This document shows positions 13,401 through 57,268 of a stretch of DNA of 64,000 nt, one piece after another; positions within the stretch are counted from its first letter, which is position 1, and every line of letters starts with the position of its first letter. Below the pieces are notes generated by a model. It had not been told where the DNA came from, did not search any database, and saw only the letters and a program-made list of their open reading frames with translations. The translations under genes and the position numbers were made by a program. The DNA comes from Nitrosotalea sp. (GTDB lineage Archaea; Halobacteriota; Syntropharchaeia; Alkanophagales; Methanospirareceae), in NCBI GenBank assembly GCA_020725315.1, contig DYFG01000001.1, forward strand, positions 17,015-81,014, read 5' to 3'.

Positions 13401-14789
13401 AGCCACAGCTAAACTAATTCTGACAATCCAACGCTTTGTCGTTTCGTCTAGTGTATTGAAACTGGAAACTGCTCCATTAATAACTTTGATTACCTTCTGA
13501 ATGTCTGGTGCTACTGCATCAAAAATAGAAATACCAAGATCAATGAAAGCGTTTTTCAGAAGAATAAGTTGGGATTTGACAGTAGCAAAACGTTTTGCAG
13601 CCTCTTCCTCTAGAGCAATTTGTTCTACCCATTGTTCATTAGCCAAAGCTATGTTGTCTGTAAGAAGCGCCATGTTAGGGCCGAGAAGGTTGACAACTTC
13701 TCGCACCCGCACGCCAGACAGCCCAAGCGCAGTTAATACATCACCGCTGATCTTACCTTGATCCTGTAGATCAACCAGGACACTCAGGAAGTCTTTGATG
13801 GTTCCAATCGCATCTGCCCTAAACCGACTCTTAAAGGTGCTAATGTCAACATTAAGAATGTTGGCAAACATCTCAGCAGTTTCTTCGTTTGCACCAGAAG
13901 CCGCTTCAAGCATTTCATAGATGACACGCGAGACAGCCGTACCACCACGTTCCGCCCGAACACCCAACTCAGCAAGAGTCGCACTTAGTCCTAGAATTTC
14001 TGGTGTGGTCAGTCCTACCAACCGTCCCGCTGCTGCCATACGCATAGCTAAATTTACGATTTCTGGTTCGGTAGCTGCTGCGTTGTTACCTAGCGCAACA
14101 ATTGCCGCGCCTGCCTGTCTTGCAAACGTATCGAGGTCCTGAGTAGCAACGCCCATAATATTACCAATACGGGCTAGAGCAAATGCAGCTTCCTCAGCAG
14201 CGAGATCAGTAGAAACAGTCAATAAAGCTACTGTGCGAGTAAAATCTTTTAGCTCTTCTGCTCCAACTCCCAACTGCCCCGCTACCTGACCAATACGAGA
14301 AAGTTCATTAACTGAAATAGGAATCTCTAAGGATAATTGGCGAAACCCGTTTCTTAGTTCTTCACCTATGTCAGTAAGCTTGCCTAGCTGTCCACTGGTA
14401 AAGACTGCATCCTTCTGTATCTGACTAAGCCCTTTAGAAGTGCCATACATTTCTTCAGCAACTTCTTTAAAGCCCGTAGTGACACCCTCTACCGTCTTAC
14501 CTACGCCAGCAAAGGCATCCTCAAAGGAAATGCCCGCCCCTATTAGCGCAGTATTAAGGACTGTCAGGGGGATGGTAAGGGAGAAAGACAAATTACGTCC
14601 AAGCGTAGAAACACTGGCGCCAAGACGTGCCAGCTTACGATCAAAGGCTTCCGCCGCAATTGCTGAAGCGCCAAGCGACTTGTTAACCTGATCAAAAGCA
14701 TGTTGAGCATCATACGCAGCTTTTCGGGCGGCATTAACCCCCAAAACAACTACGCGAATACCAATTTGTCCTTCTCCGCCACCCTGCAT
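10413..14789 (-). CDS. tail tape measure protein with an internal LysM domain
   Basis: 1458-aa protein with long low-complexity helical repeats typical of tape measure proteins. LysM motif YTAKEGDNLLDIARKHNTSVNKIIAANNKL. Its size implies a long non-contractile tail. Confidence 0.85.
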   Translation of the reverse strand: MQGGGEGQIGIRVVVLGVNAARKAAYDAQHAFDQVNKSLGASAIAAEAFDRKLARLGASVSTLGRNLSFSLTIPLTVLNTALIGAGISFEDAFAGVGKTVEGVTTGFKEVAEEMYGTSKGLSQIQKDAVFTSGQLGKLTDIGEELRNGFRQLSLEIPISVNELSRIGQVAGQLGVGAEELKDFTRTVALLTVSTDLAAEEAAFALARIGNIMGVATQDLDTFARQAGAAIVALGNNAAATEPEIVNLAMRMAAAGRLVGLTTPEILGLSATLAELGVRAERGGTAVSRVIYEMLEAASGANEETAEMFANILNVDISTFKSRFRADAIGTIKDFLSVLVDLQDQGKISGDVLTALGLSGVRVREVVNLLGPNMALLTDNIALANEQWVEQIALEEEAAKRFATVKSQLILLKNAFIDLGISIFDAVAPDIQKVIKVINGAVSSFNTLDETTKRWIVRISLAVAAIGPLLIVFGSLIQLVANSVGGFRILGTVMSTALTLPSLTPQLKKLSVGTTSVFGRISGVFKNLFGGLVGAVVNPLKDAFTTVKLLFETTILGPIQKGISTVSRVVKAGLLFIPNLIGKAFGGLLNTAKFLFNFLPAPIRLISALLKTVLGPAVSFITGLFKVLGQTAFSVFGGVAKEVIRLPKIILSFLPGLAKGLFSGLLGIVSRIPLILAGIGVAFTLLFAPKVISQAIKNWEGVLSSMKTAFSTFVDDLRNEGLERALLLLTSGGSLGSGRESGILGIAKALGASEEHARKFSYALGTATFWVIQIAKSVGTLVRRIVEVVSGGESINNAFGSTSERIISLVTVISEFLEGFFEGWTSGFDGIISAVKSLVPTISKTLSEIGRLFDNVFGKGKEDVNDFYKTLEPGTDSGISRAGEKLGEIVATLLEYAIRGFTLVADVVGRITGAIADLVKAYNEGGIEGLLTELGNKLSGVWDFLLAGATLLWEDKIKPALSTAIEKTSSWLKTTGKDLLIDAATVLWGAFASVVDSILFGKAVTIQRPVEKTVTSMLSYTAKEGDNLLDIARKHNTSVNKIIAANNKLFEGYYVWPGESIMIPIEETISTVEPETLQFPGILGAIKSLIENISTYLSSEETKNTIKNAFNDALSKIGELLSYLWEGSGDWQGLKFHFDGMLRSLEGWITENAPTFRRIGSEIAAAIVDGIQDALTPAFVKAIKEGDWERAVGELDKLLSGKTVLPPITSSGGMGDLAEWEQAVEALMAGLAPTRAQGKALLQKFRDHGIQISEGLAMGLETGILVTRQIAELNGILIGNDLTTGTKNALRIGSPSLVYRDIGADVIAGLAQGISTFLPNLNSVVSAMVNIFINAASQITSVMNMIRMQVFQIQGYMQTVQNSQMQAQLAYQQAQQAAMISAAQRTASAASTIGSAFTGSPLIPPVNQIIVNTQPQTTSTTTTNLNTTVSGVTMSTEDEAAYVIDRTLRSIKGRLVTWD

Positions 14790-22518: not shown

Positions 22519-24579
22519 CTATACTCCATATAAAGCGTGTGTCGTGTCCAACATCTCTAGCAGTTCTTTGGCAGACAAAAACCTGCTAGGTTTGTCGCTG
22601 GTATACGAAAACGGCGCACTCTCGTTCCTAAATGAAGACGTGGGTGGGTGGATAAGATAGAAATTACCCTTATCTTCTGTATAAAAGGATTCCGCCTCGC
22701 TAACCATTCCTTCATGGATTTTTTCGCCAGGACGCAAACCTATATCCACTATTGCTAAATCTTGTGCGAACTCCTTAGCAAAATCAATCATTAAAATACT
22801 AGGAGCCTTTGGAACCAATATAACTCCCGGCTCGGTTTGTAGGGACATAAGGACTTGATTAATGGCTTCATCTATTGACAGAAAGAAACGAGTCATACGA
22901 CGATCTGTGATTGTAATCGGTCCACCAACCTTAGCCTGATGTTCCCACAAAACTGCCACAGACTGATTAGAAGCCAGCACGTTACCATAACGAGTAATAT
23001 GGAAACTGGTAGCTCCATACTTATTAGCATCTTGAAACACATACTCTACCATCTTCTTGCCAACACCATAGGCGTTTTCAGGCGAACAATTATGTACTAC
23101 CACACTACCCGACACAAAAGTATGCGTATCTTCTACGTCAATACAATATACATCTCTTGATGGAGCTTTATATTCATTAAGAATGGGAGTATCTATATAA
23201 CGTTCTGCTGTTCCTAAATCCCAAAAAGTAGGATCGTAATCTATATAGTCAATTTTATTAGACATTTCAGGCAATATTCCTGGTCTAATAAAATTGAATA
23301 GAGATTGAGTACCCTCAACAGTAAATCTAAGTTCAGGATAATATTTTCCGGCTACTTTAACTAATAAATAATTACACTCAAATCCCCTGTTTGTTAAAAA
23401 CTCACATAACCAAATAACTTCTTCCTCAGTAAACCCATGAGTAGCTAGACGCGCAGATGGTCTAGAGTTCCCCCCGTTATTATGACTAATACATCCATCA
23501 TCCATAAACCAAGCTGCCATAAGATAGGGAGAAAAATATTTTTCTAGTAAATGCTTGGGAACTATTTTCGCTTTATCCGAATAAAATGCCTCTCTTAGGT
23601 TTCCTAGTGTTGCATAGGCTCTGGAAGAGGATTTACAGAAATTATTTTTTCCCTTTTTACTTCTCGTTTTAATTTCGCTAAAAGTAAACCCCCGCAGGGC
23701 TGCTGTTTTCGTTTCTAGCCACTGTCGTTGTCTCTCCGAATGACCAATAGTCAGCCGACTGCGGCGACTTTGTGTTAGGCTGCTATCGCCTAATAAAGTA
23801 CCTACAAGTAGTCCATACTGTTTAAAGTTTGGTTCTGGTTCATTAGTTATTATAAAATGATTGTCTGTTAAACTACCGGCAGGAATCCATCCTTTGGTTG
23901 TCAGAATAAGATGATCTTCTGTAACTATAGTACCAGACAACTTACCCACATGCAGATATGCTCTACGGTAAGTAAGTCTATATCTTTTCCTGCCATCCAA
24001 TTTATTTTTGTACCACCCCACCACTCGCCCTAACTTCTGTTCCCCCGTATTAGGATCAATAGTAACTACTTCGCCATCATAACGTTCTTTAACCAACTCG
24101 CCTATTGGCTTAGAGGTTCCGTCTGCCAACAAAACCCTAGCGTGCCAATCAAGACAGGCTTTGTCGGTGCTTGTCGTAACGACCTGAGACACTCCCATAT
24201 CAATTGCGGCCTCAACAACCTGCTGAGAACCGTAGATATTTGTTTCTATCGTAGCAGCAATGTTGTTTTGAGCAGAGGGTACCTGTTTATAGGCAGCAAA
24301 GTGCATTACTATGTCAACACCGCGCATGGCCCGTTTGAGATCATTATAACGAGTTATGTCTCCCAACACATATTGGTGTTCAGGAAACTTTTGACGAAGG
24401 ATGCTTTGCTTTGTTTCGTCACGCGAAAAAATTACAAACTCTGCTCCCCAAGAATTTCGTCGGGCGCGAGTAAGCACAGCCTTTCCGAGAGTACCCGTTC
24501 CGCCAGTAATTAGTATTTTTTTACCTTCCAACATCTTCCCGTAAGGATCAGAATTTGTTATCCAGGTTTCCATCATCAT
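22519..24579 (-). CDS. NAD-dependent NDP-sugar 4,6-dehydratase/epimerase (CapD/PseB-like) interrupted by an intein
   Basis: Rossmann motif ILITGGTGTLGKAV. Catalytic region STDKA then intein then CSPENAYGVGKK, corresponding to STDKAxNPxNxYGxTK. 686 aa in total, of which 356 aa is intein. Confidence 0.75.
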   Translation of the reverse strand: MMMETWITNSDPYGKMLEGKKILITGGTGTLGKAVLTRARRNSWGAEFVIFSRDETKQSILRQKFPEHQYVLGDITRYNDLKRAMRGVDIVMHFAAYKQVPSAQNNIAATIETNIYGSQQVVEAAIDMGVSQVVTTSTDKACLDWHARVLLADGTSKPIGELVKERYDGEVVTIDPNTGEQKLGRVVGWYKNKLDGRKRYRLTYRRAYLHVGKLSGTIVTEDHLILTTKGWIPAGSLTDNHFIITNEPEPNFKQYGLLVGTLLGDSSLTQSRRSRLTIGHSERQRQWLETKTAALRGFTFSEIKTRSKKGKNNFCKSSSRAYATLGNLREAFYSDKAKIVPKHLLEKYFSPYLMAAWFMDDGCISHNNGGNSRPSARLATHGFTEEEVIWLCEFLTNRGFECNYLLVKVAGKYYPELRFTVEGTQSLFNFIRPGILPEMSNKIDYIDYDPTFWDLGTAERYIDTPILNEYKAPSRDVYCIDVEDTHTFVSGSVVVHNCSPENAYGVGKKMVEYVFQDANKYGATSFHITRYGNVLASNQSVAVLWEHQAKVGGPITITDRRMTRFFLSIDEAINQVLMSLQTEPGVILVPKAPSILMIDFAKEFAQDLAIVDIGLRPGEKIHEGMVSEAESFYTEDKGNFYLIHPPTSSFRNESAPFSYTSDKPSRFLSAKELLEMLDTTHALYGV
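23089..24156 (-). mobile_element. intein with LAGLIDADG homing endonuclease inside the dehydratase gene
   Basis: Starts CLDWHARVLLADG (block A) and ends VVVHN followed by +1 Cys. LAGLIDADG-type motifs LLVGTLLGDSSL and LMAAWFMDDGCIS. Confidence 0.6.
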
Positions 24580-24648: not shown

Positions 24649-25833
24649 TTATTGTCCGTGAGTCCAGGTAGTATATCCCATCCCCTTACCTGGGGGGCCT
24701 ATCGTAGTCTCAAAATCTGTACCTGCGTAGTAGTTCACTACATAAGGAATCCACATATCATCCCCACTTACAGGGAACTTGAACACTGGATCGTTTTGGC
24801 TAGCCTCTCCCAAACCATACACCATATTAAGTGCGCGAACAATTGCATTATCTCCTGCGTCAAAAGGCAACAAACCTGCTCGATGAAGAATGACAGCGGT
24901 TACAACAAGTCCTTGCAAACCTTCATGCATGTAACCGGACTTTGTGGGGGGCCATTTAAATTCCCCTCCCCTTCGCCAGTCTTCGGGCAAGACTCCACTC
25001 ACAGAAACGCCGTTGATAGTAGAGCCTTTTCGGTTTATTCCTGCCTTATTATCAGGATCAGCGTGCCACGTTGTGTTATCGTATTTAAATTTAGGATCGG
25101 GCACAGGCAGCCCTATCATTTCCTTTTGTGCATTAACCACGTCTTCTTTCCAATCGTCACGATCTAAATAGATAGCGGCAGCAGCCAAACTTGCCCTTGC
25201 ATGTGCTCCCCAATTAGTCGCAGAATACAGGGCAGTTCCATACAACCCACTATCCCCTGGGGCAGAATGGTCAGGAATACCTGCTACAACTACTTCAGCC
25301 AACCACTCTTTAAAATCTGACTCAGTATACCCTATCAGATCAGCCGCTATTACGTAAGACTGCAATCCTCTAGACAGTTCCAACGAGCGATCAAGGCTGC
25401 TTTGCATAGCGGATCGCAAACCTTCTACAACCTTGTTTCGCATATTAGCATCTTCTAGACGAACGGCTACCAAAGCGCCTGCCAGAGTCTTTACATCGTG
25501 CTGACTATTATTATCCGCTAAATCAGCCCTTCCCCAATTGCTGTTAGCGGCCTCAAGAACCTGTTCCCAAGCTTTGCCCTCTGTAGGAAGCGCCATAATT
25601 TCTTCGGTAGACAACCAAATTCCCTCAGAAGTACCAGGAACTTCCGGTTCTTCGTCAGGCGGTTCTTCGTCAGGCGGAAGTTCTGGAATCTCATTCAACA
25701 CATCTTCAATTGCAGTTACCCGATCTTCCAACCCCCTAACAGACGACTCTATTCTAGTTAGCGCCGCATCAATCTCGTCTAGCAAACTATTAATACGTTC
25801 AAATTCTTCTTCAGGAATTTCGAACAGTCCCAT
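24649..25833 (-). CDS. putative polysaccharide lyase / glycan-modifying enzyme. N-terminal coiled coil and acidic PPDEEP repeat (start probably ATG at 25833, MGLFEIP)
   Basis: 394 aa from the internal start, which has GGGAG 9 nt upstream. The C-terminal domain has a weak alginate-lyase or heparinase-like look. Low certainty. Confidence 0.3.
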   Translation of the reverse strand: MGLFEIPEEEFERINSLLDEIDAALTRIESSVRGLEDRVTAIEDVLNEIPELPPDEEPPDEEPEVPGTSEGIWLSTEEIMALPTEGKAWEQVLEAANSNWGRADLADNNSQHDVKTLAGALVAVRLEDANMRNKVVEGLRSAMQSSLDRSLELSRGLQSYVIAADLIGYTESDFKEWLAEVVVAGIPDHSAPGDSGLYGTALYSATNWGAHARASLAAAAIYLDRDDWKEDVVNAQKEMIGLPVPDPKFKYDNTTWHADPDNKAGINRKGSTINGVSVSGVLPEDWRRGGEFKWPPTKSGYMHEGLQGLVVTAVILHRAGLLPFDAGDNAIVRALNMVYGLGEASQNDPVFKFPVSGDDMWIPYVVNYYAGTDFETTIGPPGKGMGYTTWTHGQ

Positions 25834-25907
25834 TACACAATCTCCCACAATCCCTACTACCAACAATATATACATTATATCAAAAGTATCGCAGGCACTA
25901 AAGACTC

Positions 25908-25936
25908 TTGACAAATCCTAATTTTGCGCTTATAAT
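25908..25936 (+). promoter_or_regulatory. consensus sigma70-type promoter, TTGACA-17 nt-TATAAT, driving the + strand moron operon
   Basis: TTGACA at 25908-25913, 17-nt spacer, TATAAT at 25931-25936. RBS AAGGAACGGG and ATG at 25960 follow. An AGACTC extension precedes the -35. Confidence 0.55.
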
Positions 25937-25959: not shown

Positions 25960-26154
25960 ATGACAGCTAAACAGTTTTTATATGTGTTTATTGTTTTGCT
26001 TTTGATCATAGCGTTTTTAGTGGGCATTACTGATGTTATTTTTGCTATTCTAGGATTCATGTTTGGCGGTGCTTTTATTATTTTAGACAGACAAGAAAAG
26101 ATATGGGTTATGCGAATCAACACAGATGTTCACGAAAGGGGTAACGATGATTGA
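25960..26154 (+). CDS. small hydrophobic membrane protein (2 TM)
   Basis: 64 aa, FLYVFIVLLLIIAFLVGITDVIFAILGFMFGGAFIIL. AT-rich like the phage backbone. Confidence 0.4.
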   Translation: MTAKQFLYVFIVLLLIIAFLVGITDVIFAILGFMFGGAFIILDRQEKIWVMRINTDVHERGNDD

Positions 26155-26515
26155 CCAGTTGGAATGTCCCGTAGCAGCCCCCAAGCTGCTCAAGGCGAAA
26201 TCAACTGTCGTGCTTTGCTCCAACTGCAAAGCGTGGATCACTCGCTATCCGACTTTTCTCGGATATGACGACATGGATCACTGTGAGCGATGCGGTTGCA
26301 CCAGCGTCATTATGCGCGAGGGCCGTCCCTATGGTCCGAAATCGGGCTTGTGGGATTGGATCGTCGCTGAGTTTCGCGAAGTGTTCTCCCACCTCGACAC
26401 GTGGGAGTTCGAGTCCGTTATCTGTGATCCGCCAATCGAGTCGCTCGACTGGAAGGCCATTGACGACTGGTTCAATGAAAACGACTTCCACCGTGCGCCT
26501 AGAACAGTGGAATAG
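26126..26515 (+). CDS. hypothetical Cys/His-containing protein (GC-rich island; start possibly ATG at 26147)
   Basis: 129-aa ORF with CPV ... CSNC ... HCERCGC. GC is clearly above backbone. Confidence 0.4.
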   Translation: MFTKGVTMIDQLECPVAAPKLLKAKSTVVLCSNCKAWITRYPTFLGYDDMDHCERCGCTSVIMREGRPYGPKSGLWDWIVAEFREVFSHLDTWEFESVICDPPIESLDWKAIDDWFNENDFHRAPRTVE

Positions 26516-26518
26516 GTT

Positions 26519-26770
26519 ATGCGAATAGGGGAACACGAAATGAACGCAGCAGAAATTGAACAAAAGCTTGAGCAGTTAGAGCGCAAGCTTGCCCAAGCAG
26601 AGTCGGAACAAGAGAAACTAATCTCCATCATCATGCAAGAAACGGATGTATGCCTGTTTGGTGGCGGCGCTATGCGGGACGGACTCCCCCGCCGCAACAG
26701 TTGCCGCTTTGGGCATCCAGGCTGTGCGTGCGCTGATTGGATTGACGCGCACCGACCAGATAACGTATGA
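26519..26770 (+). CDS. hypothetical coiled-coil protein (GC-rich island)
   Basis: 83 aa, AEIEQKLEQLERKLAQAESEQEKL. Confidence 0.3.
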   Translation: MRIGEHEMNAAEIEQKLEQLERKLAQAESEQEKLISIIMQETDVCLFGGGAMRDGLPRRNSCRFGHPGCACADWIDAHRPDNV

Positions 26771-26807
26771 GAAGGCAGCTACCGGAAATCTATAGGAGAT
26801 GTGGTTA

Positions 26808-27068
26808 ATGCCCACCCTTTACTACCATCCCCGCCGAGGGGGAAAGGCGACGAAAGTGGCAGCAAACAGACTGGCAGTATTGGACACCATTCGAGAGCGC
26901 ACAGAAGCAGAGACACCGCCGGAATGGATCAAGCCGCTGCTGATCATTGAGGCGCTGGTGACTGAGATTGACGCGCTCAAATCTGAGATCGAACTGCTGC
27001 GTGCCGAACTGGGCAACCGTCCCGCCGAGGGCGCCAAGCCTGCGGACGTGTGGCCTGACCGCTGGTAG
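26808..27068 (+). CDS. hypothetical protein (GC-rich island; start taken at the ATG 9 nt after RBS TAGGAGA)
   Basis: 86 aa with C-terminal coiled coil EIDALKSEIELLRAEL. Confidence 0.35.
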   Translation: MPTLYYHPRRGGKATKVAANRLAVLDTIRERTEAETPPEWIKPLLIIEALVTEIDALKSEIELLRAELGNRPAEGAKPADVWPDRW

Positions 27069-27119
27069 CCGCATCTGTGCACAGTTCACACACAGCGCCC
27101 CGGTGTGTGCCGGGGCGCG
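27069..27119 (+). repeat. copy 1 of a repeated roughly 50-nt element: CCGCATCTGTGCACAGTT plus GC-rich hairpin
   Basis: Palindromic core CTGTGCACAG, then a 9-bp stem GCGCCCCGG/CCGGGGCGC at 27095-27118. It abuts the stop codon of the preceding ORF. Confidence 0.45.
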
Positions 27120-27146
27120 TCACTTATCAGAATAGGAGTACTAAAC

Positions 27147-27644
27147 ATGAAAGGACTGGAGATGAAAAAGTACCAGCTTCGGCGGGCAATTCGGCAGACC
27201 TGCATTCTTTCGCCACCGCCGCCCCACAGCGAAACGGAGAAATACGACGCTTGGACGCTAGGGCGGCTGATCGACTACACAGCGAAGGAACTTGAGAAGC
27301 AGTTGCCCGCCTACGTCCGCAAGATGGAGTCGGTTGCTCATCCCGATCCGTCTCGCCCGCTGGTTGTCATGCCGCGAACTACATCCGCCATCCCGCTCAC
27401 CGCCGACGGATCGCCTGCCTTTCCCGAACCAGAACGGATACGCCGATACGACACGGTGCTGCCGAAACGGTTTGTTGTACGCTCCGGGGATGGCCCGGCG
27501 CTCAATGTCTTCATCGGCTATTCATCGCTCATGGAGACGGTCTACTTCTTTCGCGTCAAACGGTTACTCGACGAGGCGACGATCCGCCGCCCAACATGGA
27601 AGGGGCGCAAAACACCCCTCAACCGCGAACTGCCCTACGCCTGA
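27147..27644 (+). CDS. hypothetical protein (GC-rich island)
   Basis: About 165 aa from the ATG at 27147 (RBS AGGAG). No motifs. Confidence 0.4.
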   Translation: MKGLEMKKYQLRRAIRQTCILSPPPPHSETEKYDAWTLGRLIDYTAKELEKQLPAYVRKMESVAHPDPSRPLVVMPRTTSAIPLTADGSPAFPEPERIRRYDTVLPKRFVVRSGDGPALNVFIGYSSLMETVYFFRVKRLLDEATIRRPTWKGRKTPLNRELPYA

Positions 27645-27697
27645 CCGCATCTGTAAACAGTTGCCAGATAGAGCGCCCCAACCGGGGCGCTTTTTGC
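27645..27697 (+). terminator. copy 2 of the repeated element (CCGCATCTGTAAACAGTT) plus a rho-independent terminator
   Basis: Stem AGCGCCCC (27672-27679), loop AACC, GGGGCGCT, then TTTTT at 27691-27695. Confidence 0.55.
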
Positions 27698-27752
27698 TTA
27701 TGCGAATCGACCGTTGCAAAACCCACCAGTCTCTTATGAGTGATGTCATCAG

Positions 27753-30155
27753 TTAACTCTCGCTGTAGGATACCCATGCGCTAATGAGAGATTGCAGCGT
27801 CGCAAAATGTGCGTCTGCAATTGCCTGTTTCGTGCGAAGGTCCGCGATTGATGAGACAACCACCGCTCTAATCCCATCAATCGCCTCGCGGATTTGGTCA
27901 GTAGTGACACCCAGGTTGGTGCTAAGGTCCAAGCTGGTCCATTGGGTCGGATTAGTGCCAGTGAGTTCTTTGGGTGACATAAAATAACTGTTCGTTACCG
28001 CAGAGGTCACAGAGCCGGTTAAAGAGCCGATTAGCGTATCGGTTATTGTCTGATTGCTGCCAGTGCCTGCCAGGACCGCGATCCCGGTACTCGACCATAC
28101 AATATTTTTTTGAAAGGTGCCGTTGTCCCCATCAATGACCATGCCACACAGCACGTCGCCCAGGAAGTTTCCTCGCACCTTACCATAGGTAGGATCGTGC
28201 CAAAAATGGATAGCATATCCCTCTCCGCCGATGAAGATATTTTCTTCGATCAGCGGCTCATCTTCCGCCTGGGTTATGTCATGATTAGTGTAATAAAGCG
28301 AGTGGTAATGGACTCCGCTACCGCACTCAATGAAACGGTTGCGATAGATATGGACGCGGGTAAAGTCTGAACCAAGACACTCCCAAAAACCGAAGAAGGT
28401 GTTGTACCGGACTACGCAATCAGGCTTTACATGCACGTGCTGGTTGGGGGTTGCAGGTGCAGCAGCCTTAGCTCCCCCGATCCAACACCCTTCCAGCGTC
28501 GCCCCGCTATTTACAACTACAGTGGGCGCATAGCCATCAGTGCGAGTGATTATGGGCTTTGCTCCTGCTGCTGCCTTGAGCGTGCCGCCCGCTGGAATGT
28601 TAATATGATAGCCGTTTACCGTAGTGGCCGGGTCGAGGGCATAGATTCCGTCGGCAAGCTCTACGATTCCCCCTGCCGCCAATTCCGCATAAGGGAAAAC
28701 TTGATCGCCAGTCACGGACATCGGCTCCATCAAGACGGGGTCGGGCTGGGAGACGCCGCTACCGGGGCCAAGATAAAGCTGTGGGTTAGCGTAGGCCGAA
28801 GACGAGATCGGATAACTTTGCAACCCTTCAGGTGATGTTTCTGCCGGGTATACCGCCGCGATTGCCGTTGCGGTATCCTGGTGCGACACATCCAAGATAG
28901 CACCGCGCGACGTCACCGTTTTTCCTGAGCGCGATAAAAAGCGGTGTTGTGTGCCTTCGCACATCACGTCGATGCCGGTCGGCGTCCCCACGTTCAGCAC
29001 ATCGGTCCATCCAGCAGGCACAATTTCAGAGCCGCCAACAACTTGTCGCACACAATAATCCCAGGCCGTATTTGTCTCGTTGCGCCGTATAATGGCTCTC
29101 CACTTATTATCTTGATCACCAATGCGGTAGTCGATGGATACTTCTTCGCCTGCCGATGGGGCGTCATTGAGTACAAACGTAAAACGATGTATTGCGTCGG
29201 CTGACGCTTCATACTGCGATCCAGACACTGGCTCGGTTTCGTAGACGGTGGCAAGCCCGGCGTCCGAATTGAACGGCGCTCCAAGAGCAAGCACCGCAAT
29301 TGAATCCATCTCGAATTTGTCGTTGGTAGATGTTACTCTGGTATACACATCTCCAAGGTTGTAATCATAGTATCGCGGTTTAATTAAGGTGAGTTTTGAG
29401 GTGGTGCAATTAATGTATAATACCAAAGTGTCGGTATAAATCACCGCAAACCGACGCTGGTCGCTGTAATAGCCAGAGAAAGTCTCTAAAAAGGAGAGAT
29501 AGGATGGTGAGATACGGTCTACCGGCACTCCCAACTTTTCGTTGCTAAATCCAACGCGCATGTTAGACCCGCCAGCGGTATAGTTCGTGCTAAATAATAG
29601 AGCTAACCCAGGGACAAATGGGGTTGGGCTTGCGGTAGTCACTGATATGTTGGTGGTGGCAGTTTTCGCCAGTTTGCCATTGGCAATCGAGAGGTCAGGC
29701 GCTCCCGCATCGGAAAATTCTAAGACGCCGGGACCGGGTTCACTTGTGCGTGGTGTCGTTATCGGAGCCGCATCAGCGGTTGTAAACTCATCACGCAAAA
29801 TATAGAGATCGACGGCAAGGCTAAACTGAGTTGCCGCCTTGTTGGCATTACCAGCGAGATCGGTACACACCGCAGCAGGAATGTCTACGGTGACTATGCC
29901 AACATCAATCGTTGGTGTGATCGTCGCTGTCCAGACGGTGTTATCTGCCGTGACAAAGTTTGACATCACGCAGTTGCCGAGCTTCACATCGCTGTACGCA
30001 AATCCGGTAACTTCATCGTCAAACGTGATAATAATCGTAAACGGCCCTTTGGTGGGCGCAACCGCATCGCTCGTAATCGTTACGGTCGGCCCGCTCACCC
30101 CCTGCGCCCCCCGGAACGCCGGATTGTTCAGCAGCAAACCCATCATTCCCGGCAT
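27753..30155 (-). CDS. large virion-associated protein: N-terminal Ig-like region, C-terminal right-handed parallel beta-helix (pectate-lyase fold); putative depolymerase or fibre
   Basis: 800 aa. C-terminal PbH1-like repeats NIFIGGEGYAIHFWHD..GNFLGDVLCGMVIDGDNGTFQKNIVWSSTGIAV. GC-rich relative to the backbone. Confidence 0.5.
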   Translation of the reverse strand: MPGMMGLLLNNPAFRGAQGVSGPTVTITSDAVAPTKGPFTIIITFDDEVTGFAYSDVKLGNCVMSNFVTADNTVWTATITPTIDVGIVTVDIPAAVCTDLAGNANKAATQFSLAVDLYILRDEFTTADAAPITTPRTSEPGPGVLEFSDAGAPDLSIANGKLAKTATTNISVTTASPTPFVPGLALLFSTNYTAGGSNMRVGFSNEKLGVPVDRISPSYLSFLETFSGYYSDQRRFAVIYTDTLVLYINCTTSKLTLIKPRYYDYNLGDVYTRVTSTNDKFEMDSIAVLALGAPFNSDAGLATVYETEPVSGSQYEASADAIHRFTFVLNDAPSAGEEVSIDYRIGDQDNKWRAIIRRNETNTAWDYCVRQVVGGSEIVPAGWTDVLNVGTPTGIDVMCEGTQHRFLSRSGKTVTSRGAILDVSHQDTATAIAAVYPAETSPEGLQSYPISSSAYANPQLYLGPGSGVSQPDPVLMEPMSVTGDQVFPYAELAAGGIVELADGIYALDPATTVNGYHINIPAGGTLKAAAGAKPIITRTDGYAPTVVVNSGATLEGCWIGGAKAAAPATPNQHVHVKPDCVVRYNTFFGFWECLGSDFTRVHIYRNRFIECGSGVHYHSLYYTNHDITQAEDEPLIEENIFIGGEGYAIHFWHDPTYGKVRGNFLGDVLCGMVIDGDNGTFQKNIVWSSTGIAVLAGTGSNQTITDTLIGSLTGSVTSAVTNSYFMSPKELTGTNPTQWTSLDLSTNLGVTTDQIREAIDGIRAVVVSSIADLRTKQAIADAHFATLQSLISAWVSYSES

Positions 30156-30207
30156 ATCGTCACCTCGCCCTCGCCTTTATTCGTTATGAGAATGGTCATT
30201 CTAAACA

Positions 30208-30669
30208 TTAGCTAATCAAGCTGTATTGTACTAGCAAATCAGTCTGATCTTCATCAGCACCAGTCGCATCAACAAACAAAAGGCGTACATACGGGAAAGG
30301 AAAAATCTCTGCCCACAAAACAAGCGCATTAGGCTCTCCTGCAACAAGAGTCATTTCAAATGGTGCGTCATTTGCAGTATCCATCAACGTAGCAAAGTTC
30401 GCAGGATTACCATCTGTTGAAACTTGAACACGAAGAACACTACCCGCAATAAAATCGCCCGCAATTACAACACCCACAGAAGCCCATCCACGCTTGTCAA
30501 TTACATCTGATACAGCACCATTAACAGTCATCACATTGTAGGGAGACATAAGACGGGCGGGAAGAACCGTTGCAGCATCTAGCCCCTCTCCTACAGAAGT
30601 AGCTGTAATGTCTCCTGATCCTACAATAGTTACAGGATAGGCGTTACCTGCCAAAGTACCTCTGCTCAT
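30208..30669 (-). CDS. hypothetical protein after the major capsid gene (possible decoration or connector protein)
   Basis: 153-aa ORF. Synteny only. Confidence 0.3.
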   Translation of the reverse strand: MSRGTLAGNAYPVTIVGSGDITATSVGEGLDAATVLPARLMSPYNVMTVNGAVSDVIDKRGWASVGVVIAGDFIAGSVLRVQVSTDGNPANFATLMDTANDAPFEMTLVAGEPNALVLWAEIFPFPYVRLLFVDATGADEDQTDLLVQYSLIS

Positions 30670-34445: not shown

Positions 34446-35178
34446 GAACTTCTACCTTACTAAATGTATATGGGCTTTCTGCTTCATGATCTAAACAAAC
34501 AACACAATTTTCCGCCGAAGGATTTACGTTCCAATAAACGTAATAATTATCCTCATCTTCATCTACTTCCAACCAGCATTTGCACAACGATTTTCCAAGA
34601 CAGTCGTCACCTGGGAGATAAGGCATCATAAAAGTAATATCGACAGGAATAGTGCCCGCTATAAACGGTGCTCTGGCATACCCATACAGAGAAGAACGCC
34701 ACTGTAGACGACCACTATAAATTACTCCGCTAGACAACGCCTCACGAATGTCTGCCTCAAATCCATCGAAGTATTCATATTCCCTCTCTAAACGCTGTTC
34801 TAAGATTTCCCTGTGCCGTTCAGTAAATTCCTCTCCTTGCAAACCCAACAGCATAAGATCAGAAAAATGGATACGCAGACGATCTCTAAACCGCTCCGAA
34901 AATTCCCTTATTGATAAGGCTCCCGACAAAACAGCGACCAGCAATTCCTGAAATTCTTGGGATGCCTCTTCACAAAGTTCTTCGTATTCCTGTTCGTCCC
35001 GCTCATCATACTGCTTCTTTCCTTTACCAGCAGCATGTATGCACGCGAAAATAGCCTCTTCTTCAGACCCGCCATCTCTCAAAACCGCATTAGCGGCTCT
35101 GATACAACGTTTCTTTTCTGAGACTGTCCAATTCTTAGCAACTTTTGGCACGTAATTGGGATAACGATAGGGACTCAT
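34429..35178 (-). CDS. hypothetical head morphogenesis protein with C-terminal Cys cluster
   Basis: 249 aa, directly after portal. C-terminal CxxC...C..C (CLGKSLCKCW ... CVVC). Confidence 0.3.
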   Translation of the reverse strand: MSPYRYPNYVPKVAKNWTVSEKKRCIRAANAVLRDGGSEEEAIFACIHAAGKGKKQYDERDEQEYEELCEEASQEFQELLVAVLSGALSIREFSERFRDRLRIHFSDLMLLGLQGEEFTERHREILEQRLEREYEYFDGFEADIREALSSGVIYSGRLQWRSSLYGYARAPFIAGTIPVDITFMMPYLPGDDCLGKSLCKCWLEVDEDEDNYYVYWNVNPSAENCVVCLDHEAESPYTFSKVEVHGLTT

Positions 35179-37736
35179 TTCGTAACCAACTCACTTACTA
35201 TCCTACGCGCTTCTTGTATGTCTTTAGCAGTTATTTTTTTGTAGCCCTTCCTCTCAGTATGAGAATCAATGCCACCAACAATCTGATCTGTTCCAAAGGT
35301 AATTTCACTCGGCTGCTCCGTAGGCTGCGAAGATAAACGAGATTCGATCTCAGGTATCATCCATTCTGGTATATCACCTGACTCAACCGCCAACTGCCTT
35401 GCAGCAATCGCATCAATCTCTCCACTACGAACTAACAAAGCACGTTCTTTAGCTCTAATAAATCTCGCCTCTGCCCGTTCCCTGTCAGACCGAATATCCT
35501 GTTCCTTAAACTCAAACCGAACATTATAAGGAAGATGAGAATTTATCTTATCTTCCAACATCGTCATAATCAGGGCAGGGCCTTTACCCCTCGTCTTGAG
35601 ATGGAGAATTTCAGACTGTCCAGATGATCCAAGATTACCGGACATGAGTGGGGCAAACTCTTGATAATCCACACCAAAAGCAAGCGCCAACTGTGCTATA
35701 TACCATTTAAAGGTTGTGTCTTCGTTAAACGAATCTGGTAATGTTGCCAGATCAATGTGAACGTGACTGAGTGGGTGAGTAGGATCAACCCCAGGAATAA
35801 TCACTGGTTGCGAAAAACGATATAAACCACGATTAAGGTTTTGTTCTTCTGCCAGCAACACCGCATCATCAATGTTTGATTTTGATACGCCACCGATAAT
35901 ATCAATGGCGCGAGTAAAGTTGCCGCCTACCTTTTCTTTCTTATAGATGGAAATGTCTCTAAGAATTTGGGCGGCGAGTAGGGCACGGGATGTAGCACAA
36001 TATTGCATGCCATACATTTCTTCGATGGGAGAAGGAAACTCTTCTAACGTTTCTACTCTCCACCAGGGCATTGCATGCTCTCTACCATAAAAGTCTCTAT
36101 AAATAACTGGATATTCTGGATCACCAGTTCGCCAACAACGTCCTGAGTCCAGGTGTGCAAAATTAATCACAGGAGAAGTAGGGTTATTATTATCAACCCT
36201 AATAATTTCCCAAAAGGCGCCATTATCCTGTGTGTTGTGAGAAACAAGATTTCCAGCAATAAAATTGCGAGTTTTGTCTACTCCAATATGATAGGTGGTT
36301 TCTACAACCTTCCCGGTTGCTCCTATATAGTCTTTCTGTTCTATTTTTTCAATTTCATCAAAGTAGATTTTTGCAGGTTCCAACTCCCACACAGAAGGAT
36401 TAAATGGTTTTGTGTGTTGTCCCATCTTATACTGCATAGACGGAATTATATATTCGCTGATATAGGACACCACTGCACGATAACCATCGGCAGTGAAACG
36501 AATCCTATAATACTTGTCCTTTATCGGTTGCACCTTACAAGAAAAACCACGCGAGGTAAGTTCCTCAGCAAGCCATTCAACATCTTCTTTTTCAAATCCA
36601 TCTGTGCATAAAACAGCGTGTTCTGATTGATTGTTTGCTGTGGTAAGTGTTCTCTGGCACGCCCCGTCATCCATAAACCATATTGCAAGCATACGGGGAG
36701 AGAAGTATTTCACAAAGTCTTCCCTATTAACTCGCTTCTTCCCGTCTGGATACCATCTATCAAACCAAGGAGATAGCCCCAAAGAAGCTAGCGAGTTTAC
36801 TCCTATGATGTGTGCTCCTTTTTCTGTGAGCCTAGAATTTTGCCCTGTCCAACCAAACTCTTTTAACAAAGACTTCTTAAATTCTAGATAATCAGACTGA
36901 TCAACAGAGTGTCTAAAGCGGATAATTGCTCTCTTGGTAAAACGAGACATACTCATATCCCCAAGCAACCCGCCCACAAGTACCTCTGCCTGTTCTTCTG
37001 AAGGAACAAGATCAGAAGTACCTATCTTATCAGTAGGTAGCAAGTCTTTAGCTTGTACCCAACCACGATCAGTTAGCATGGGATGATCTTCAGTTAAAAA
37101 GATTCCTCCTTGCTTTCCTCCATGACCATGATTAGTTGCTAGTTTAGTAGACAGGAAATACCATTTACGATTCCCTAGTGGCGTAGAATGCCATTCAGTA
37201 ACCATCTGTTCTACCAAAGTTCCGTCAGAACCAACGCTAATCACAGGACCAGGATCACGATCCTTTACCATTCTTGCTATCGTCTTTGTTTTTCCTAGTC
37301 GATCCCCCCCTAGCTTAACTTTAGTATTACCAGCCAAGCAATAGAGGTCAATACAAGTTTTAAGAATTAAATCGTACCACCCCTTACCACGATTTGATCG
37401 CTGGATAATCTCAGTAACCTTGTTAATTGTATTTTTAGGTCGCGGTTTAGTCTTGTCTGTGCCTTCAATATGCCACGCAAAACTGGCGTTACGAATTGAA
37501 ACACCATAAACCGCGCTTGCCAAAAGGGACTCTGTGTGCCAAAATTCCCGTAATTCCCTATCTCGTTTAACAGGATCTTTGCCCCAGGGCGTAATTGAAT
37601 CGGCAGTTGTCGCCAGTTGTAAAATCAAGGGGCCAACACGCGGCGTCCTGTTATTAGGCGGCGTCTCAACAACAGAGTTTTCAAAAAGCTCTGGTAACAA
37701 TTCTTTTTCTTCTACAAAATCACTACCGACTGCCAT
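35175..37736 (-). CDS. portal protein interrupted by an intein
   Basis: 853-aa gene immediately downstream of, and overlapping, the large terminase gene. The roughly 484-aa extein is portal-sized. The intein is at residues 133-501. Confidence 0.6.
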   Translation of the reverse strand: MAVGSDFVEEKELLPELFENSVVETPPNNRTPRVGPLILQLATTADSITPWGKDPVKRDRELREFWHTESLLASAVYGVSIRNASFAWHIEGTDKTKPRPKNTINKVTEIIQRSNRGKGWYDLILKTCIDLYCLAGNTKVKLGGDRLGKTKTIARMVKDRDPGPVISVGSDGTLVEQMVTEWHSTPLGNRKWYFLSTKLATNHGHGGKQGGIFLTEDHPMLTDRGWVQAKDLLPTDKIGTSDLVPSEEQAEVLVGGLLGDMSMSRFTKRAIIRFRHSVDQSDYLEFKKSLLKEFGWTGQNSRLTEKGAHIIGVNSLASLGLSPWFDRWYPDGKKRVNREDFVKYFSPRMLAIWFMDDGACQRTLTTANNQSEHAVLCTDGFEKEDVEWLAEELTSRGFSCKVQPIKDKYYRIRFTADGYRAVVSYISEYIIPSMQYKMGQHTKPFNPSVWELEPAKIYFDEIEKIEQKDYIGATGKVVETTYHIGVDKTRNFIAGNLVSHNTQDNGAFWEIIRVDNNNPTSPVINFAHLDSGRCWRTGDPEYPVIYRDFYGREHAMPWWRVETLEEFPSPIEEMYGMQYCATSRALLAAQILRDISIYKKEKVGGNFTRAIDIIGGVSKSNIDDAVLLAEEQNLNRGLYRFSQPVIIPGVDPTHPLSHVHIDLATLPDSFNEDTTFKWYIAQLALAFGVDYQEFAPLMSGNLGSSGQSEILHLKTRGKGPALIMTMLEDKINSHLPYNVRFEFKEQDIRSDRERAEARFIRAKERALLVRSGEIDAIAARQLAVESGDIPEWMIPEIESRLSSQPTEQPSEITFGTDQIVGGIDSHTERKGYKKITAKDIQEARRIVSELVTK
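36234..37340 (-). mobile_element. intein with LAGLIDADG homing endonuclease in the portal gene
   Basis: Block A CLAGNTKVKL. Ends NLVSHN with +1 Thr. Motifs LVGGLLGDMSMS and MLAIWFMDDGACQ. Confidence 0.55.
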
Positions 37737-40476
37737 TTATGTATTTCTCCCCCAACTCAGGGAATTTCTGCCGGACTATTTGTGAGAAGGTTTCCAACTC
37801 AATTTCACCCTTTGCTAACATCTGTAGTAAATCTTCCTTCTCAAATTCCCGATTGTCTAATTCCAATTCCATACATTTGTAAGCAGCCATCGACAAAGCA
37901 ACTGCCGCGTCAATCTTGGCTTCTGGTGACAGCTTTTCTAGGCGTCTTTGCCGTCCCGAAATTACTGCCCCGGCTTGCCGAATATGCTGATATAGCGTAT
38001 CTTCTTCTCTCCCAGGACCCCCCACATCCCCGATTGTAGTGGTTCGATTCCAAGTCAGTTGTCGGTGCATCACCATGTCATAAAGCTGTTTGTCAGCAAT
38101 ACCTCGCGCCGTATTTTGAGTGAAAGGATCGAACCAACCAAACCCATCCTTACGATAGTCTTGAACAAGTTTTGCCATCTGGTACGGATCATAAACCCAA
38201 CATATAACATTCCATCGGGAAGCCCATTCACGAATGGTATTACCAACTGTCTGTTCTTGGTCTATGTTACCACCTAACTTTTTAGGATTAAAAATCTTTA
38301 CAGCCCGAACCGCAACACAAGTATCAGGGTTGATTGGATCGCGAGTTACAGCAACCATCGCCGCTAAGTCATTTGATACACTCATATCTATTGCAACCAC
38401 AACAGGAGTCTTATCTCCCTGCTTAAGAACGGGCAAAGAAGGACTTTCACAATTATCCCACCATTGAGCCTCGATAAACGCACCCTTCGCACTCACCCAA
38501 CGATTACGATGGATACGTTCAAACTCCTCTGGTTCTAAGGTATTTTTCTGTTCTTCATAGTAATTAGTACCTAATTGCCAGGGCATCCGAGGTTCGGTGT
38601 CCCAATACATAAACATACGAGAAGGCGCATGAGTATAAACCACTGGACCTTCTTCAGTATCAAGATAGGAAAAATCTGGATGGGGAGTTCCTTCTTTCTT
38701 TCCTGTGTTATAAAGAGATTCTAAAAGAATGGACACTCCGGTATATCCTGCATAGGATTCAACCCACTGCATTGCATATCCGTACAAAGTGGGCGGAACC
38801 GTAAGTTCTGTCCATAGCTGGCGTTTCTTAGGTGTATCAAATCCCCACAACTCACTGTTGCCCTGGATATGTACTTTTCCGTGTCGTCTAACTACTACAG
38901 TTTTGTTAGGTACTGTAGGACAGTGGATAATCCCTTCATAGTCTATCTTTTGCCAACGATCTTTTTTAATGTGAAGTATACGGCTCCCATCCCCCATTGG
39001 CTTAACACTAACTGAATATAAAGGCCTTCCCCATCGCCTATCTTGATAGGTAGTTACTGTTACATATCTGCCCCGCCTAGCATAAATTTCTAACAAATCG
39101 TCTCGCAATTTAGGAGAGTTTGTGCTATAAACAATATGCCCGTATTGAGTTACAGCATCACCAGTCTTGTATCCATCCCCACGCCAATAAGACTCTAATA
39201 ACACGTCTAAATATTCATCTGGAAGTTCTTTAATCCATGCCGGTATATACTTTTCGTGTGCCAGCCCAAATTGCTTTAAATGTTTCGCTATACGAGTATC
39301 ATAAAACACTAAAGCATCTGTACCCTTCCACACACGCGGAACATATCCGAGATCGGAGATTAGCGTTTTCAATTCTTCGTAATAAGGAGATACACTGCTC
39401 TGTGCTAACAACACGGTATCGCCCTTATGGGTACATCCCTCAGACAAATACCACCCCAAAAACTTAAGGTACAGTTTTACAGGAATCTCAAGACTCGGCC
39501 TACGCTTAGTGCCTGGAATAGTCACAAATTCTGGTACATCTACTGGTTTCCTTTTTAGTCCCAAAGATTCTACTCGCATACCATACACCCCGGCTTCTAT
39601 GGCGGATTCTACGGAGCGCTTTTCAAATTGGGCTTTATTAAGGGCTATAGAACTAGAACCAAATTTACCATACAGCCTATGATTAGGAGACACGCACAAA
39701 CTGTATCTGCTAGATTCTAATAGATACATAGGGCCTCCATACTGTGAGACATTTATATGAGTGGGATGTTGGTACTCTAGATACCCATCCGAACGTAAAG
39801 TTAAAAACTGATCATCCATAGAATATTGATCATAGCGTTTCCACCCATCCCTAGTAAGTATCTCTGTGTCTTCGTCAAAACAAAAGACACTTAGCGTAGG
39901 TTCACCACCAGCCTCACCTGCCGCGTCAACCGGAACAGCCTCAATCTTACAAAAATTAGGAAGGGTAACCTCGTATTCATACGGGTTTATATCCTTAAAG
40001 GGGCCTTGTTGCTGTCTATGGAGTCTATAATTTTGTTTTATAGGCGCATAGATACGGTCGTTCGCCTGTTTACCATCGTTTGCTACACACGCAATAAACC
40101 CATAAGGACTATGATGAGCCACATAAGTAGCTACTGCCGCAGCAACCGCAGACTTTCCGCTTTTCTTTGGGGCACTATAAACTACCAAAGCATACTTAAA
40201 TGTCCCATCAGGATTCCGTGATAGGGCTTCATTAATCAAATGCTTTTGGTGATCGGTTAATTGAATCGGGCCAGCGGGAAGTATTTCGCCAGTCTTAGGG
40301 TTTCGAGGTCGAGGTACCCAAAAATATCGTTCAATCCAATCAGCCGGAAGAATTGCTTCCTGATTCTGTTCTTGCACTAAGTTGCGTGACAACTGCCGTA
40401 GTGCCTGATCCAGCAGCGTCTTCGAGTCGCCTTGAGATGTAATCGACAACTGCTTCCCTAACGTGTGCATCATCAA
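37723..40476 (-). CDS. terminase large subunit interrupted by an intein at the Walker B region
   Basis: Walker A VVYSAPKKSGKSAVAAAV. The intein starts at C199 (TLSVF then CFDEDTEILTRDGW). 917 aa including a roughly 342-aa intein. Lies upstream of portal. Confidence 0.8.
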   Translation of the reverse strand: MMMHTLGKQLSITSQGDSKTLLDQALRQLSRNLVQEQNQEAILPADWIERYFWVPRPRNPKTGEILPAGPIQLTDHQKHLINEALSRNPDGTFKYALVVYSAPKKSGKSAVAAAVATYVAHHSPYGFIACVANDGKQANDRIYAPIKQNYRLHRQQQGPFKDINPYEYEVTLPNFCKIEAVPVDAAGEAGGEPTLSVFCFDEDTEILTRDGWKRYDQYSMDDQFLTLRSDGYLEYQHPTHINVSQYGGPMYLLESSRYSLCVSPNHRLYGKFGSSSIALNKAQFEKRSVESAIEAGVYGMRVESLGLKRKPVDVPEFVTIPGTKRRPSLEIPVKLYLKFLGWYLSEGCTHKGDTVLLAQSSVSPYYEELKTLISDLGYVPRVWKGTDALVFYDTRIAKHLKQFGLAHEKYIPAWIKELPDEYLDVLLESYWRGDGYKTGDAVTQYGHIVYSTNSPKLRDDLLEIYARRGRYVTVTTYQDRRWGRPLYSVSVKPMGDGSRILHIKKDRWQKIDYEGIIHCPTVPNKTVVVRRHGKVHIQGNSELWGFDTPKKRQLWTELTVPPTLYGYAMQWVESYAGYTGVSILLESLYNTGKKEGTPHPDFSYLDTEEGPVVYTHAPSRMFMYWDTEPRMPWQLGTNYYEEQKNTLEPEEFERIHRNRWVSAKGAFIEAQWWDNCESPSLPVLKQGDKTPVVVAIDMSVSNDLAAMVAVTRDPINPDTCVAVRAVKIFNPKKLGGNIDQEQTVGNTIREWASRWNVICWVYDPYQMAKLVQDYRKDGFGWFDPFTQNTARGIADKQLYDMVMHRQLTWNRTTTIGDVGGPGREEDTLYQHIRQAGAVISGRQRRLEKLSPEAKIDAAVALSMAAYKCMELELDNREFEKEDLLQMLAKGEIELETFSQIVRQKFPELGEKYINGSR
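38857..39882 (-). mobile_element. intein in the terminase large subunit gene (homing-endonuclease-like insert; non-canonical C-terminal GN-S junction inferred)
   Basis: Block A CFDEDTEILT. Candidate end VHIQGN then Ser. Internal LKFLGWYLSEG and WRGDGYKTGD motifs. The exact C-terminal boundary is uncertain. Confidence 0.45.
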
Positions 40477-49988: not shown

Positions 49989-50018
49989 TAGTTAAGTTTA
50001 AGAGAAAAAAAAATAATT
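49989..50018. repeat. direct repeat copy A (TTAGTTAAGTTTAAGAGAAAAA..TAATTT) downstream of the 218-aa gene
   Basis: Near-identical to copy B at 50766-50794. Confidence 0.5.
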
Positions 50019-57117: not shown

Positions 57118-57268
57118 GGAGAAAATAACGTGCCTAACCATCAAGCGAAAGACGATCCCGACAATCTCTTCCCGATCCTATGTATTTATGACTGGTATGA
57201 CTAATCATACCTACCTCTGCACATTGGAAATGGTGTGCAGTATTGGGATGAAAGTAAAGGAGTGTACC

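Follow-up and report, generated by a model that had tools for sequence, protein, structure and literature searches.

The 64-kb stretch of DNA analyzed here (the window; JGI metagenome contig Ga0246235_100118) contains an island, 26118-30207, that is its most GC-rich 4-kb stretch (GC, 0.539 versus 0.45). It is, we think, probably a hyperplastic accessory locus that interrupts the cluster of structural genes in an uncultured siphovirus-like phage; of its two convergent halves, one is a rightward array of small gene cassettes bounded by a short motif and the other a leftward slot in which one fibre gene is swapped for another. When the window was compared with other metagenome contigs (designated by L-numbers), variants that are 97-100% identical to it elsewhere, the cassettes and the fibre gene showed gains, losses, permutations, and replacements, each independent of the others, in genomes that are nearly identical. 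The original prediction, made from the letters of the window, had described a horizontally acquired 4-kb module, a four-gene moron accompanied by a beta-helix protein. The DNA is indeed deviant in composition, and it proved to be extra relative to close relatives, so that the moron-like architecture and the horizontal origin stand, but there is no one module: at least five units turn over independently, and the prediction had overlooked the hairpins and the recurrent motif found at the cassette boundaries.

All four of the small open reading frames (ORFs) of that proposed moron exist, one of them rich in cysteine as had been noticed, but the plus-strand array has five genes, of which the first, tm64, ahead of cys122, p76, p86, and p165, had gone uncounted, and the starts required revision. 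Starts at 26147, 26540, 26808, and 27147 were chosen by Shine-Dalgarno (SD) spacing and public gene calls; for p76 the start at 26540 is backed by an SD and by homologues starting MHAEIEQ, giving 76 rather than 83 amino acids (aa). From left to right, with the GC content of third codon positions given as GC3, the features of the array are as follows.

25908-25936, plus strand: candidate promoter matching the sigma-70 consensus, TTGACA-17-TATAAT, at 12 of 12 positions.
25960-26154, plus strand: tm64, 64 aa with two predicted transmembrane segments (KD19 maximum, 3.02); GC3 backbone-like at 0.32.
26103-26117, plus strand: junction motif copy 1, ATGGGTTATGCGAAT, at the left edge of the cys122 cassette; repeat family D2.
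26147-26515, plus strand: cys122 cassette, an acidic protein of 122 aa (isoelectric point [pI], 4.8) with seven Cys residues, including two CxxC pairs; GC3, 0.67.
26512-26526, plus strand: junction motif copy 2, ATAGGTTATGCGAAT, followed by the SD AGGGG and ACACGAA-ATG.
26540-26770, plus strand: p76 cassette, with a coiled-coil N-terminus and a Cys/His-rich C-terminus; GC3, 0.53.
26766-26775, plus strand: degenerate junction motif, TATGAGAAGG, overlapping the p76 stop codon and homologous to TATGCGAATAGG in L011.
26808-27068, plus strand: p86 cassette, with a basic N-terminus and a leucine-zipper-like helix; GC3, 0.68.
27069-27133, plus strand: hairpin linker 1, comprising CCGCATCTGTGCACAGTT, a GC hairpin (27095-27118) without a T-run, the degenerate motif TTATCAGAAT, and the SD AGGAG; repeat families D1 and D3.
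27147-27644, plus strand: p165 cassette, a basic ORFan of 165 aa (pI, 9.95); GC3, 0.70.
27645-27712, plus strand: hairpin linker 2 and array end, comprising CCGCATCTGTAAACAGTT, a terminator hairpin (27670-27693) with TTTTTG, and the end motif TTATGCGAATCGACC.
30184-30208, plus strand: possible relic junction motif, TTATGAGAATGGTCATTCTAAACAT, at the right edge of the island.

Among the variant contigs, cys122, p76, p86, p165, and the adjoining 800-aa gene (p800) are each separately present, absent, or replaced, and every type of junction is found in at least two independent assemblies. In L008 and L010, position 26117 is joined directly to 26512 and cys122 is therefore missing, while it is present in L011; L013 jumps from about 27103 to 27645 and so has no p165, a gene also missing from L091 and from L009, which departs from the window at 27127. 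Replacement and permutation are equally evident: three other GC-rich cassettes lie upstream of p76 in L012, a different gene follows p76 in L010, and a 68-aa cassette stands downstream of p76 in L010 and upstream of it in L091 and L092. The most promiscuous unit is p76 itself, about 250 bp of which (26510/33 to 26782/88) recurs at 97.5-99.6% identity in L091-L094, contigs retrieved by a lookup of the exact 76-aa protein, with all neighbours different; beyond GAAGGCAGC, at the end of p76, the downstream sequence differs in every array. A p86 homologue in L013 preserves the frame despite indels, and L011 carries at 1067-1391 an in-frame chimera in which the N-terminus of p86 is fused to p76 (p86::p76). 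The first gene, tm64, is kept in the three variant contigs that span its position (L008, L010, and L011), with a length of 48 aa in L008 and L010, the two without cys122.

The cassettes meet at a recurrent motif. Its exact form, TTATGCGAAT, has three copies in the window, starting at 26108, 26517, and 27698, against an expectation of 0.18, a count reached in none of 100 shuffles. The degenerate core, TWAYGMGAAK, was found 16 times on the coding (plus) strand and not once on the opposite strand in 11.4 kb of arrays, where 0.17 matches were expected, compared with a single match in the rest of the window (59.5 kb) and a background level in 284 kb of control loci. It is present at nearly every cassette junction, including, in degenerate copies, the p76|p86 and p86|p165 junctions of the window, and it sits just past or overlapping the upstream stop codon and immediately 5' of the next SD, as in TAG-gTTATGCGAAT-AGGGG-aacacgaa-ATG. 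At some junctions CCGCATCTGTnnACAGTT and a GC hairpin precede the core (27069-27118 and 27645-27693); hairpins are found at two of the five window junctions (27095-27118 and 27670-27693) and at several junctions of L091 and L092, and none is found at the tm64|cys122, cys122|p76, and p76|p86 junctions, which measure 24-37 nt. Past the terminator there is a last, "empty" copy, which reads TTATGCGAATCGACC in the window, L013, and L091 and the degenerate TAACGAGAATCGACC in L092. The possible relic at 30184-30208, which over 25 nt shows 76% identity to the leader of p165 (27124-27148; repeat family D1), is the sole TWAYGMGAAK match in the p800 slot and could be due to chance. Most break-points between contigs lie within about 15 nt of a linker, at no single fixed nucleotide, the exceptions being within genes in L010, L011, and L012/L013. 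As a separate observation, the loop of the first GC hairpin (27104-27109) is flipped, reading TGTGTG in the window and CACACA in L013, L009, and L091 with the same palindromic stem, which suggests inversion across the stem.

The leftward half of the island is occupied by p800, which was rightly seen as GC-rich, with Ig-like sequence at its N-terminus and a pectate-lyase-type beta-helix at its C-terminus; two lectin-like domains between these were missed, its codon usage is intermediate, and it belongs to the head-side late unit, not to the moron. Its features are as follows.

27753-30155, minus strand: p800, the last gene of the head-side late unit, after p192 and p153 on the side of the putative major capsid protein (MCP) gene; SD, GAGGTG; GC3, 0.55.
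29820-30092, minus strand: residues 22-112, a Big_12 bacterial Ig-like domain (Pfam E value, 6.5e-17).
28785-29795, minus strand: residues ~121-457, two predicted ConA-like lectin/carbohydrate-binding-module beta-sandwich domains.
27756-28748, minus strand: residues ~470-800, a right-handed parallel beta-helix and three C-terminal helices in the AlphaFold2 (AF2) model.

The architecture of p800 is thus an Ig domain, two lectin domains, and a beta-helix like those of PL6 lyases and tailspikes. The AF2 model of the C-terminal part, made with alignments from the HMMER search given below, is of high confidence (pLDDT, 91.9; pTM, 0.91), and Foldseek searches with the beta-helix returned PL6 alginate lyases, AlgE4/mannuronan epimerases, and the HK620 tailspike (TMq up to 0.50), with phage tailspikes also among the BFVD matches. 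At the sequence level the Pfam Beta_helix match (residues 605-711) is weak, and a profile search of the PDB matched the PL6 structure 7o77 (E value, 9e-6) over only ~80 residues (profile positions 7-86), other PL6 entries having E values above 0.05; the conserved residues R79, H164, Y167, N209, and N230 (numbering of alignment A1) are active-site candidates only. An exhaustive HMMER search with residues 121-800 collected 539 relatives that resolve into two modules, in that stand-alone proteins of ~380 aa match residues ~121-457 and stand-alone proteins of ~300-330 aa match residues ~470-798; L088 has, within a tail-like cluster, a middle-module homologue with a beta-helix gene of its own kind, separate, right after it. 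We regard p800 as probably a virion fibre that binds host polysaccharide and probably also cleaves it.

At least four alternative genes occupy the slot of p800: p683 in L017 and others in L013, L009/L091, and L092. Up to 27712, five bases past the TTATGCGAATCGACC copy, L017 matches the window at 98.6% identity; it then carries a different minus-strand gene of 683 aa, and homology returns, at 78%, at 30209 inside p153; the end motif of L017 is partly tandem-duplicated (610-645). The product of this gene, p683 (GC3, 0.70), shares with p800 one lectin-like region, at 27% identity, and has a weakly GH43-like C-terminus. A peptide of ~20 aa at the N-terminus, roughly (G/A)L(L/M)LGVPGAQG, is common to p800, p683, L091_392, and L092_581, and the remainder of each protein differs. 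This peptide might be the counterpart of the conserved N-terminal anchor that swappable tailspikes combine with an exchanged distal part, and p800 resembles beta-helix tailspikes and depolymerases (HK620, P22, and Klebsiella phage) and PL6 lyases in its C-terminal right-handed parallel beta-helix and in being encoded in a structural cluster; it differs from them in its additional Big_12 and two lectin domains and in the extent, ~80 residues, of its sequence similarity to PL6.

We propose that the rightward half of the locus would be read from one strong sigma-70-type promoter through the AT-rich, conserved tm64 and a variable series of GC-rich ORFan cassettes to an intrinsic terminator, successive cassettes being separated by linkers in which the strand-specific core lies just 5' of the next SD, with CCGCATCTGTnnACAGTT and a GC hairpin before it at some. 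The leftward slot, from the end motif to the stop codon of p153, would hold a fibre gene whose ~20-aa N-terminal peptide is kept as its lectin and catalytic-looking remainder is swapped wholesale. The linkers may serve as cross-over points for recombination between co-infecting or resident relatives, GC-rich phages included, and exchange of this kind with GC-rich phages would explain the foreign composition; p800, for its part, may bind or cleave a host surface polysaccharide. All of the alternative cassettes and fibre genes have a GC content of 0.5-0.7, and the 125-aa neighbour in L091 has no similarity to p153; thus, the same cassettes may also reside in different backbones that are GC-rich, and the foreign composition would then probably stem from these.

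The candidate promoter and terminator of the original prediction were both recovered. The 64 kb contain no perfect TTGACA-17-TATAAT other than that at 25908-25936 (0.07 expected; present in 7 of 100 shuffles), both of its hexamers are unchanged in L008, L010, and L011, in which the spacers differ, and a promoter scan found no other on the plus strand of the island, so placed that it would drive the entire array. The terminator-like hairpin consists of a 10-pair stem (27670-27693) followed by TTTTTG, with a fold z score of -2.7. Back-to-back with the plus-strand promoter is a weaker minus-strand promoter-like site, TTGTCA-18-GATACT with TG (25885-25914), which could restart late transcription toward p394, the 394-aa gene next to the island, and the tail genes where the array interrupts the late operon.

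The compositional claim was borne out by sliding-window GC, GC3, and codon usage. Among 4.09-kb windows slid over the 64 kb, the highest GC (0.539; mean, 0.451; standard deviation, 0.030) was that of the window starting at 26101; 1-kb bins from 26 to 30 kb have GC contents of 0.51, 0.57, 0.55, and 0.50 between flanks of 0.37-0.49, and in 200-nt windows GC steps up at ~26100 and down at ~30200. The GC3 of 29 backbone genes is 0.385 ± 0.047, with the putative MCP gene highest at 0.50, which places the five island genes from cys122 to p800 at z scores of 3.1 to 6.6. The codon usage of the four small ORFs has a correlation of 0.86 with that of the window's two GC-rich TnpB genes and of only 0.28 with that of the backbone; the corresponding figures for p800 are 0.64 and 0.69. 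The placement within the late operon also stands, since on the same minus strand TerL, the large terminase (37723-40476), lies upstream and the TMP/Dit/Gp37-like tail genes (5844-14789) lie downstream. The arrangement of the window was found again at 99.99-100% identity in at least five independent assemblies and is therefore no assembly chimera or artefact. The source samples are JGI 3300029892/3300029893, SRR5011273, and SRR28264341/43.

The window has two further GC-rich islands, 43467-44594 and 58312-59760, both on the minus strand, which are TnpB/IS605-OrfB genes (GC, 0.60; GC3, 0.74-0.75). The nearest relatives of the first TnpB, at 60-87% aa identity, are almost all from metagenome-assembled genomes of Chloroflexota (Caldilineales, Anaerolineae, and Chloroflexia), and the Chloroflexota TnpB loci that we fetched, gene plus flanks, have GC contents of 0.50-0.66. 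This suggests that the host of this 45%-GC phage is a GC-rich Chloroflexota bacterium, which would explain the GC-richness of everything recently acquired. To our knowledge, very few phages have been described for Chloroflexota. The notion that the hairpin-flanked p165 derives from an IS200/IS605 element and would be mobilised along with the TnpB elements of the phage found no support at the two TnpB genes, where no comparable hairpins were seen.

The original prediction called the small proteins unknown, and none of the small ORFs had a match in Pfam, PHROGs, NCBIfam, or PADLOC. Our best guess is that they would be dispensable accessory factors, expressed early or in lysogeny, that might act in host takeover, exclusion, or counter-defence. 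No relatives came from a megablast search of 24-32 kb against 50,697 phage records, from tblastn searches of the same records with p800, the putative MCP, and the small ORFs, or from scans of IMG/VR with p153, the MCP, p76, and the hairpin-linker DNA pattern.

Several points weigh against our proposal. Selection for intact genes would likewise leave intergenic break-points, and because of this, recombination mediated by the linkers is something that we infer; some break-points, moreover, fall within genes, namely, L010 at 26750, the p86::p76 chimera of L011, and L012/L013 at 26549. The composition of p800 is only intermediate, and the MCP gene itself reaches a GC3 of 0.50. The promoter and terminator are assigned from consensus matches only, and the host is assigned through TnpB relatives at 60-87% identity, not by a direct link. 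Substitutions in the small ORFs are too few for a firm dN/dS ratio, as with the 10 synonymous versus 5 nonsynonymous codon changes of p86 in L009, and p165, whose sole match among 5.8e9 proteins was its own 90% cluster, is the only one of the small proteins with a clean search of a database of that size. Finally, p800 may be located on either the tail or the head of the virion.

Among the alternatives, site-specific cassette capture in the manner of an integron or of Xer/dif fares best, and we nevertheless hold it to be unlikely. According to this explanation, TTATGCGAAT, with or without a hairpin, would be the core site of a recombinase, for example, a phage Xer-like enzyme, and cassettes would move as circles. 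The exact 10-mer is kept, strictly co-oriented, between unrelated cassettes and in different backbones, an empty copy follows the last cassette, the motif is tandemly duplicated in L017, cassette order permutes, the cassettes are promoterless behind a single promoter, hairpin linkers bear CGCAT...ATGCG at their two ends, and the window encodes a Xer-like tyrosine recombinase (3447-4397, plus strand). The core also resembles the XerC arm of E. coli dif in reverse complement, TTATGCGCACC. On the other hand, not one copy has an inverted half-site at a distance of 6-8 bp from its core, which rules the motif out as a full Xer/dif site; three of the five window junctions are 24-37 nt long and without a hairpin; the cross-over is not fixed, homology beginning at 26510, 26517, 26532/3, or 26549 according to contig; the recombinase, the only one of the tyrosine type, is encoded at a distance of 22 kb, and its score of 22 bits compares with an integron-integrase cut-off of 265; and in-gene chimeric junctions point to illegitimate or homologous exchange. 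As in integrons, the cassettes have unknown functions, all point the same way from one promoter, vary in order, and meet at boundaries that each have a conserved core and in some cases an imperfect palindrome, but the island contains no recombinase, no IntI or attI is adjacent, and most boundaries are too short for attC. There is, in the same vein, a slight chance that the TWAYGMGAAK core, with its optional CCGCAT...hairpin...ATGCG and terminal empty copy, marks the site of an undescribed phage-borne cassette-capture system; if so, single ORFan genes would be moved as units among unrelated phage backbones of the same (Chloroflexota) hosts, beside a modular receptor-binding slot.

Insertion in a single event of one acquired module of ~4 kb, a classical moron with a partner beta-helix gene, expressed from a prophage, is improbable in our judgment. 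It would suit the abrupt GC edges at ~26100 and ~30200, the promoter and terminator that flank the plus-strand genes, and the presence of a tyrosine recombinase in the genome, and the locus fits, at the sequence level, the definition of a moron as extra DNA with its own promoter and terminator and deviant GC, as known from lambdoid and other temperate phages (HK97 gene 15 type; Juhala/Hendrix; PMC3594210). Like a moron, the DNA lies between late genes and is missing in close relatives, cys122, p165, and p800 being absent or replaced in the 97-100% identical contigs, and its predicted signals would allow transcription against, or independently of, the late operon. However, each gene varies separately among those contigs, GC3 is unequal between units (0.53-0.70), the codon-usage correlation of p800 is backbone-like, and tm64, the first gene, is backbone-like and kept in the three variant contigs that span it. 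Loss of parts from one ancestral 4-kb insert would yield deletion derivatives, which cannot account for replacement by unrelated genes. The locus departs from a moron, then, in being a multi-gene array with unit-by-unit turnover, a backbone-like first gene, and repeated linker motifs.

We give similarly little credence to the idea that the motif is mainly an RNA-level signal, a translational operator, processing site, or ribosome stand-by site in the leader of every accessory gene, with recombination incidental. Its strand specificity and its position 13-35 nt upstream of start codons, abutting the SD as GAAT-AGGRG-N8-ATG, are what such a signal would show, but the copy after the terminator has no plus-strand gene downstream of it in the window, L013, L091, or L092, one exact copy lies within coding sequence, at L091 position 709, where it encodes GYAN, and the motif region has no predicted structure or Rfam match (Rfam matched nothing in 24-31 kb). 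A last alternative, in which the elevated GC is due to selection, such as adaptation of the codons of highly expressed genes to those of a GC-rich host, and not to foreign origin, is very hard to credit: the MCP gene, presumably highly expressed, does top the backbone in GC3 and p800 is little higher, but presence/absence polymorphism, the 99.6% identity of p76 inside unrelated arrays, and the z scores of the small ORFs (3.1-6.6), whose codon usage is that of the TnpB insertion elements, largely refute it for the small cassettes.

The hyperplastic locus that we favour has its nearest parallels in morons and in the ORFan cassettes of T4-like phages, whose hyperplastic regions contain cassettes bounded by promoter early stem-loops, or PeSLs (Arbiol et al. 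2010, PMC2839356; Comeau et al. 2014, PMC4122927). The present locus and the T4-like regions both combine ORFans in a plastic region with short intergenic elements (with an SD and a start codon and, in PeSLs, a stem-loop) that flank the variable genes and coincide with the end-points of indels and replacements between near-identical phages. Each PeSL holds a strong sigma-70 promoter, whereas here one promoter would serve the whole array, the core is a 10-nt nonpromoter motif, hairpins occur at some junctions only, and the lineage is unrelated and siphovirus-like; that each linker might be a PeSL-like promoter was ruled out by the promoter scan and by reading the sequences, which contain no -35/-10 pair. 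A system reported in 2022 (PMC9122126) shares with this locus a fixed position between conserved phage genes that holds rapidly exchanged accessory cargo; here the cargo consists of single small ORFs without a PADLOC defence match and not of multi-gene defence systems.

Phage accessory genes are a main reservoir of unknown functions, and their spread has been described in mechanistic detail for only a few model groups (lambdoid morons, T4 PeSLs, and P2/P4 hotspots). The present locus would add a record, at the level of natural populations, of how single-gene cassettes turn over in a lineage that is itself uncultured and has no cultured relatives; in it, cassettes are added, dropped, reordered, fused into chimeras, and passed between GC-poor and GC-rich backbones. 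A junction motif this simple lends itself to searching, so that a catalogue of cassettes could be mined from metagenomes, and the presence of at least four alternative lectin-plus-enzyme proteins in the fibre slot suggests that host range or glycan specificity is switched rapidly.

Some further observations concern the surroundings of the island. An inverted repeat, matching at 17 of 18 positions, links 26285-26302 in cys122 with 30055-30072 at the 5' end of p800; the frames differ, and the repeat could be chance or a recombination scar. The adjoining 394-aa gene (24649-25833, minus strand), with a coiled-coil N-terminus and a weak alginate-lyase-like match, is deleted in L008, L010, and L011, and as the junctions differ in all three and the last ~12 codons are kept in each, these deletions look like recurrent independent events. 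LAGLIDADG inteins interrupt a sugar epimerase/dehydratase (22519-24579, minus strand), the L008 allele of which has no intein, and an 853-aa protein of the structural region (35175-37736, minus strand), and the large terminase, of 917 aa, carries an unrelated insert at residues ~198-288. No tRNAs were found in the window. It also encodes a family-A DNA polymerase (74-1576), a Mom-family protein (50018-50674, minus strand), and an anti-restriction-like protein with ArdC-N and zincin domains (57188-58192, plus strand).

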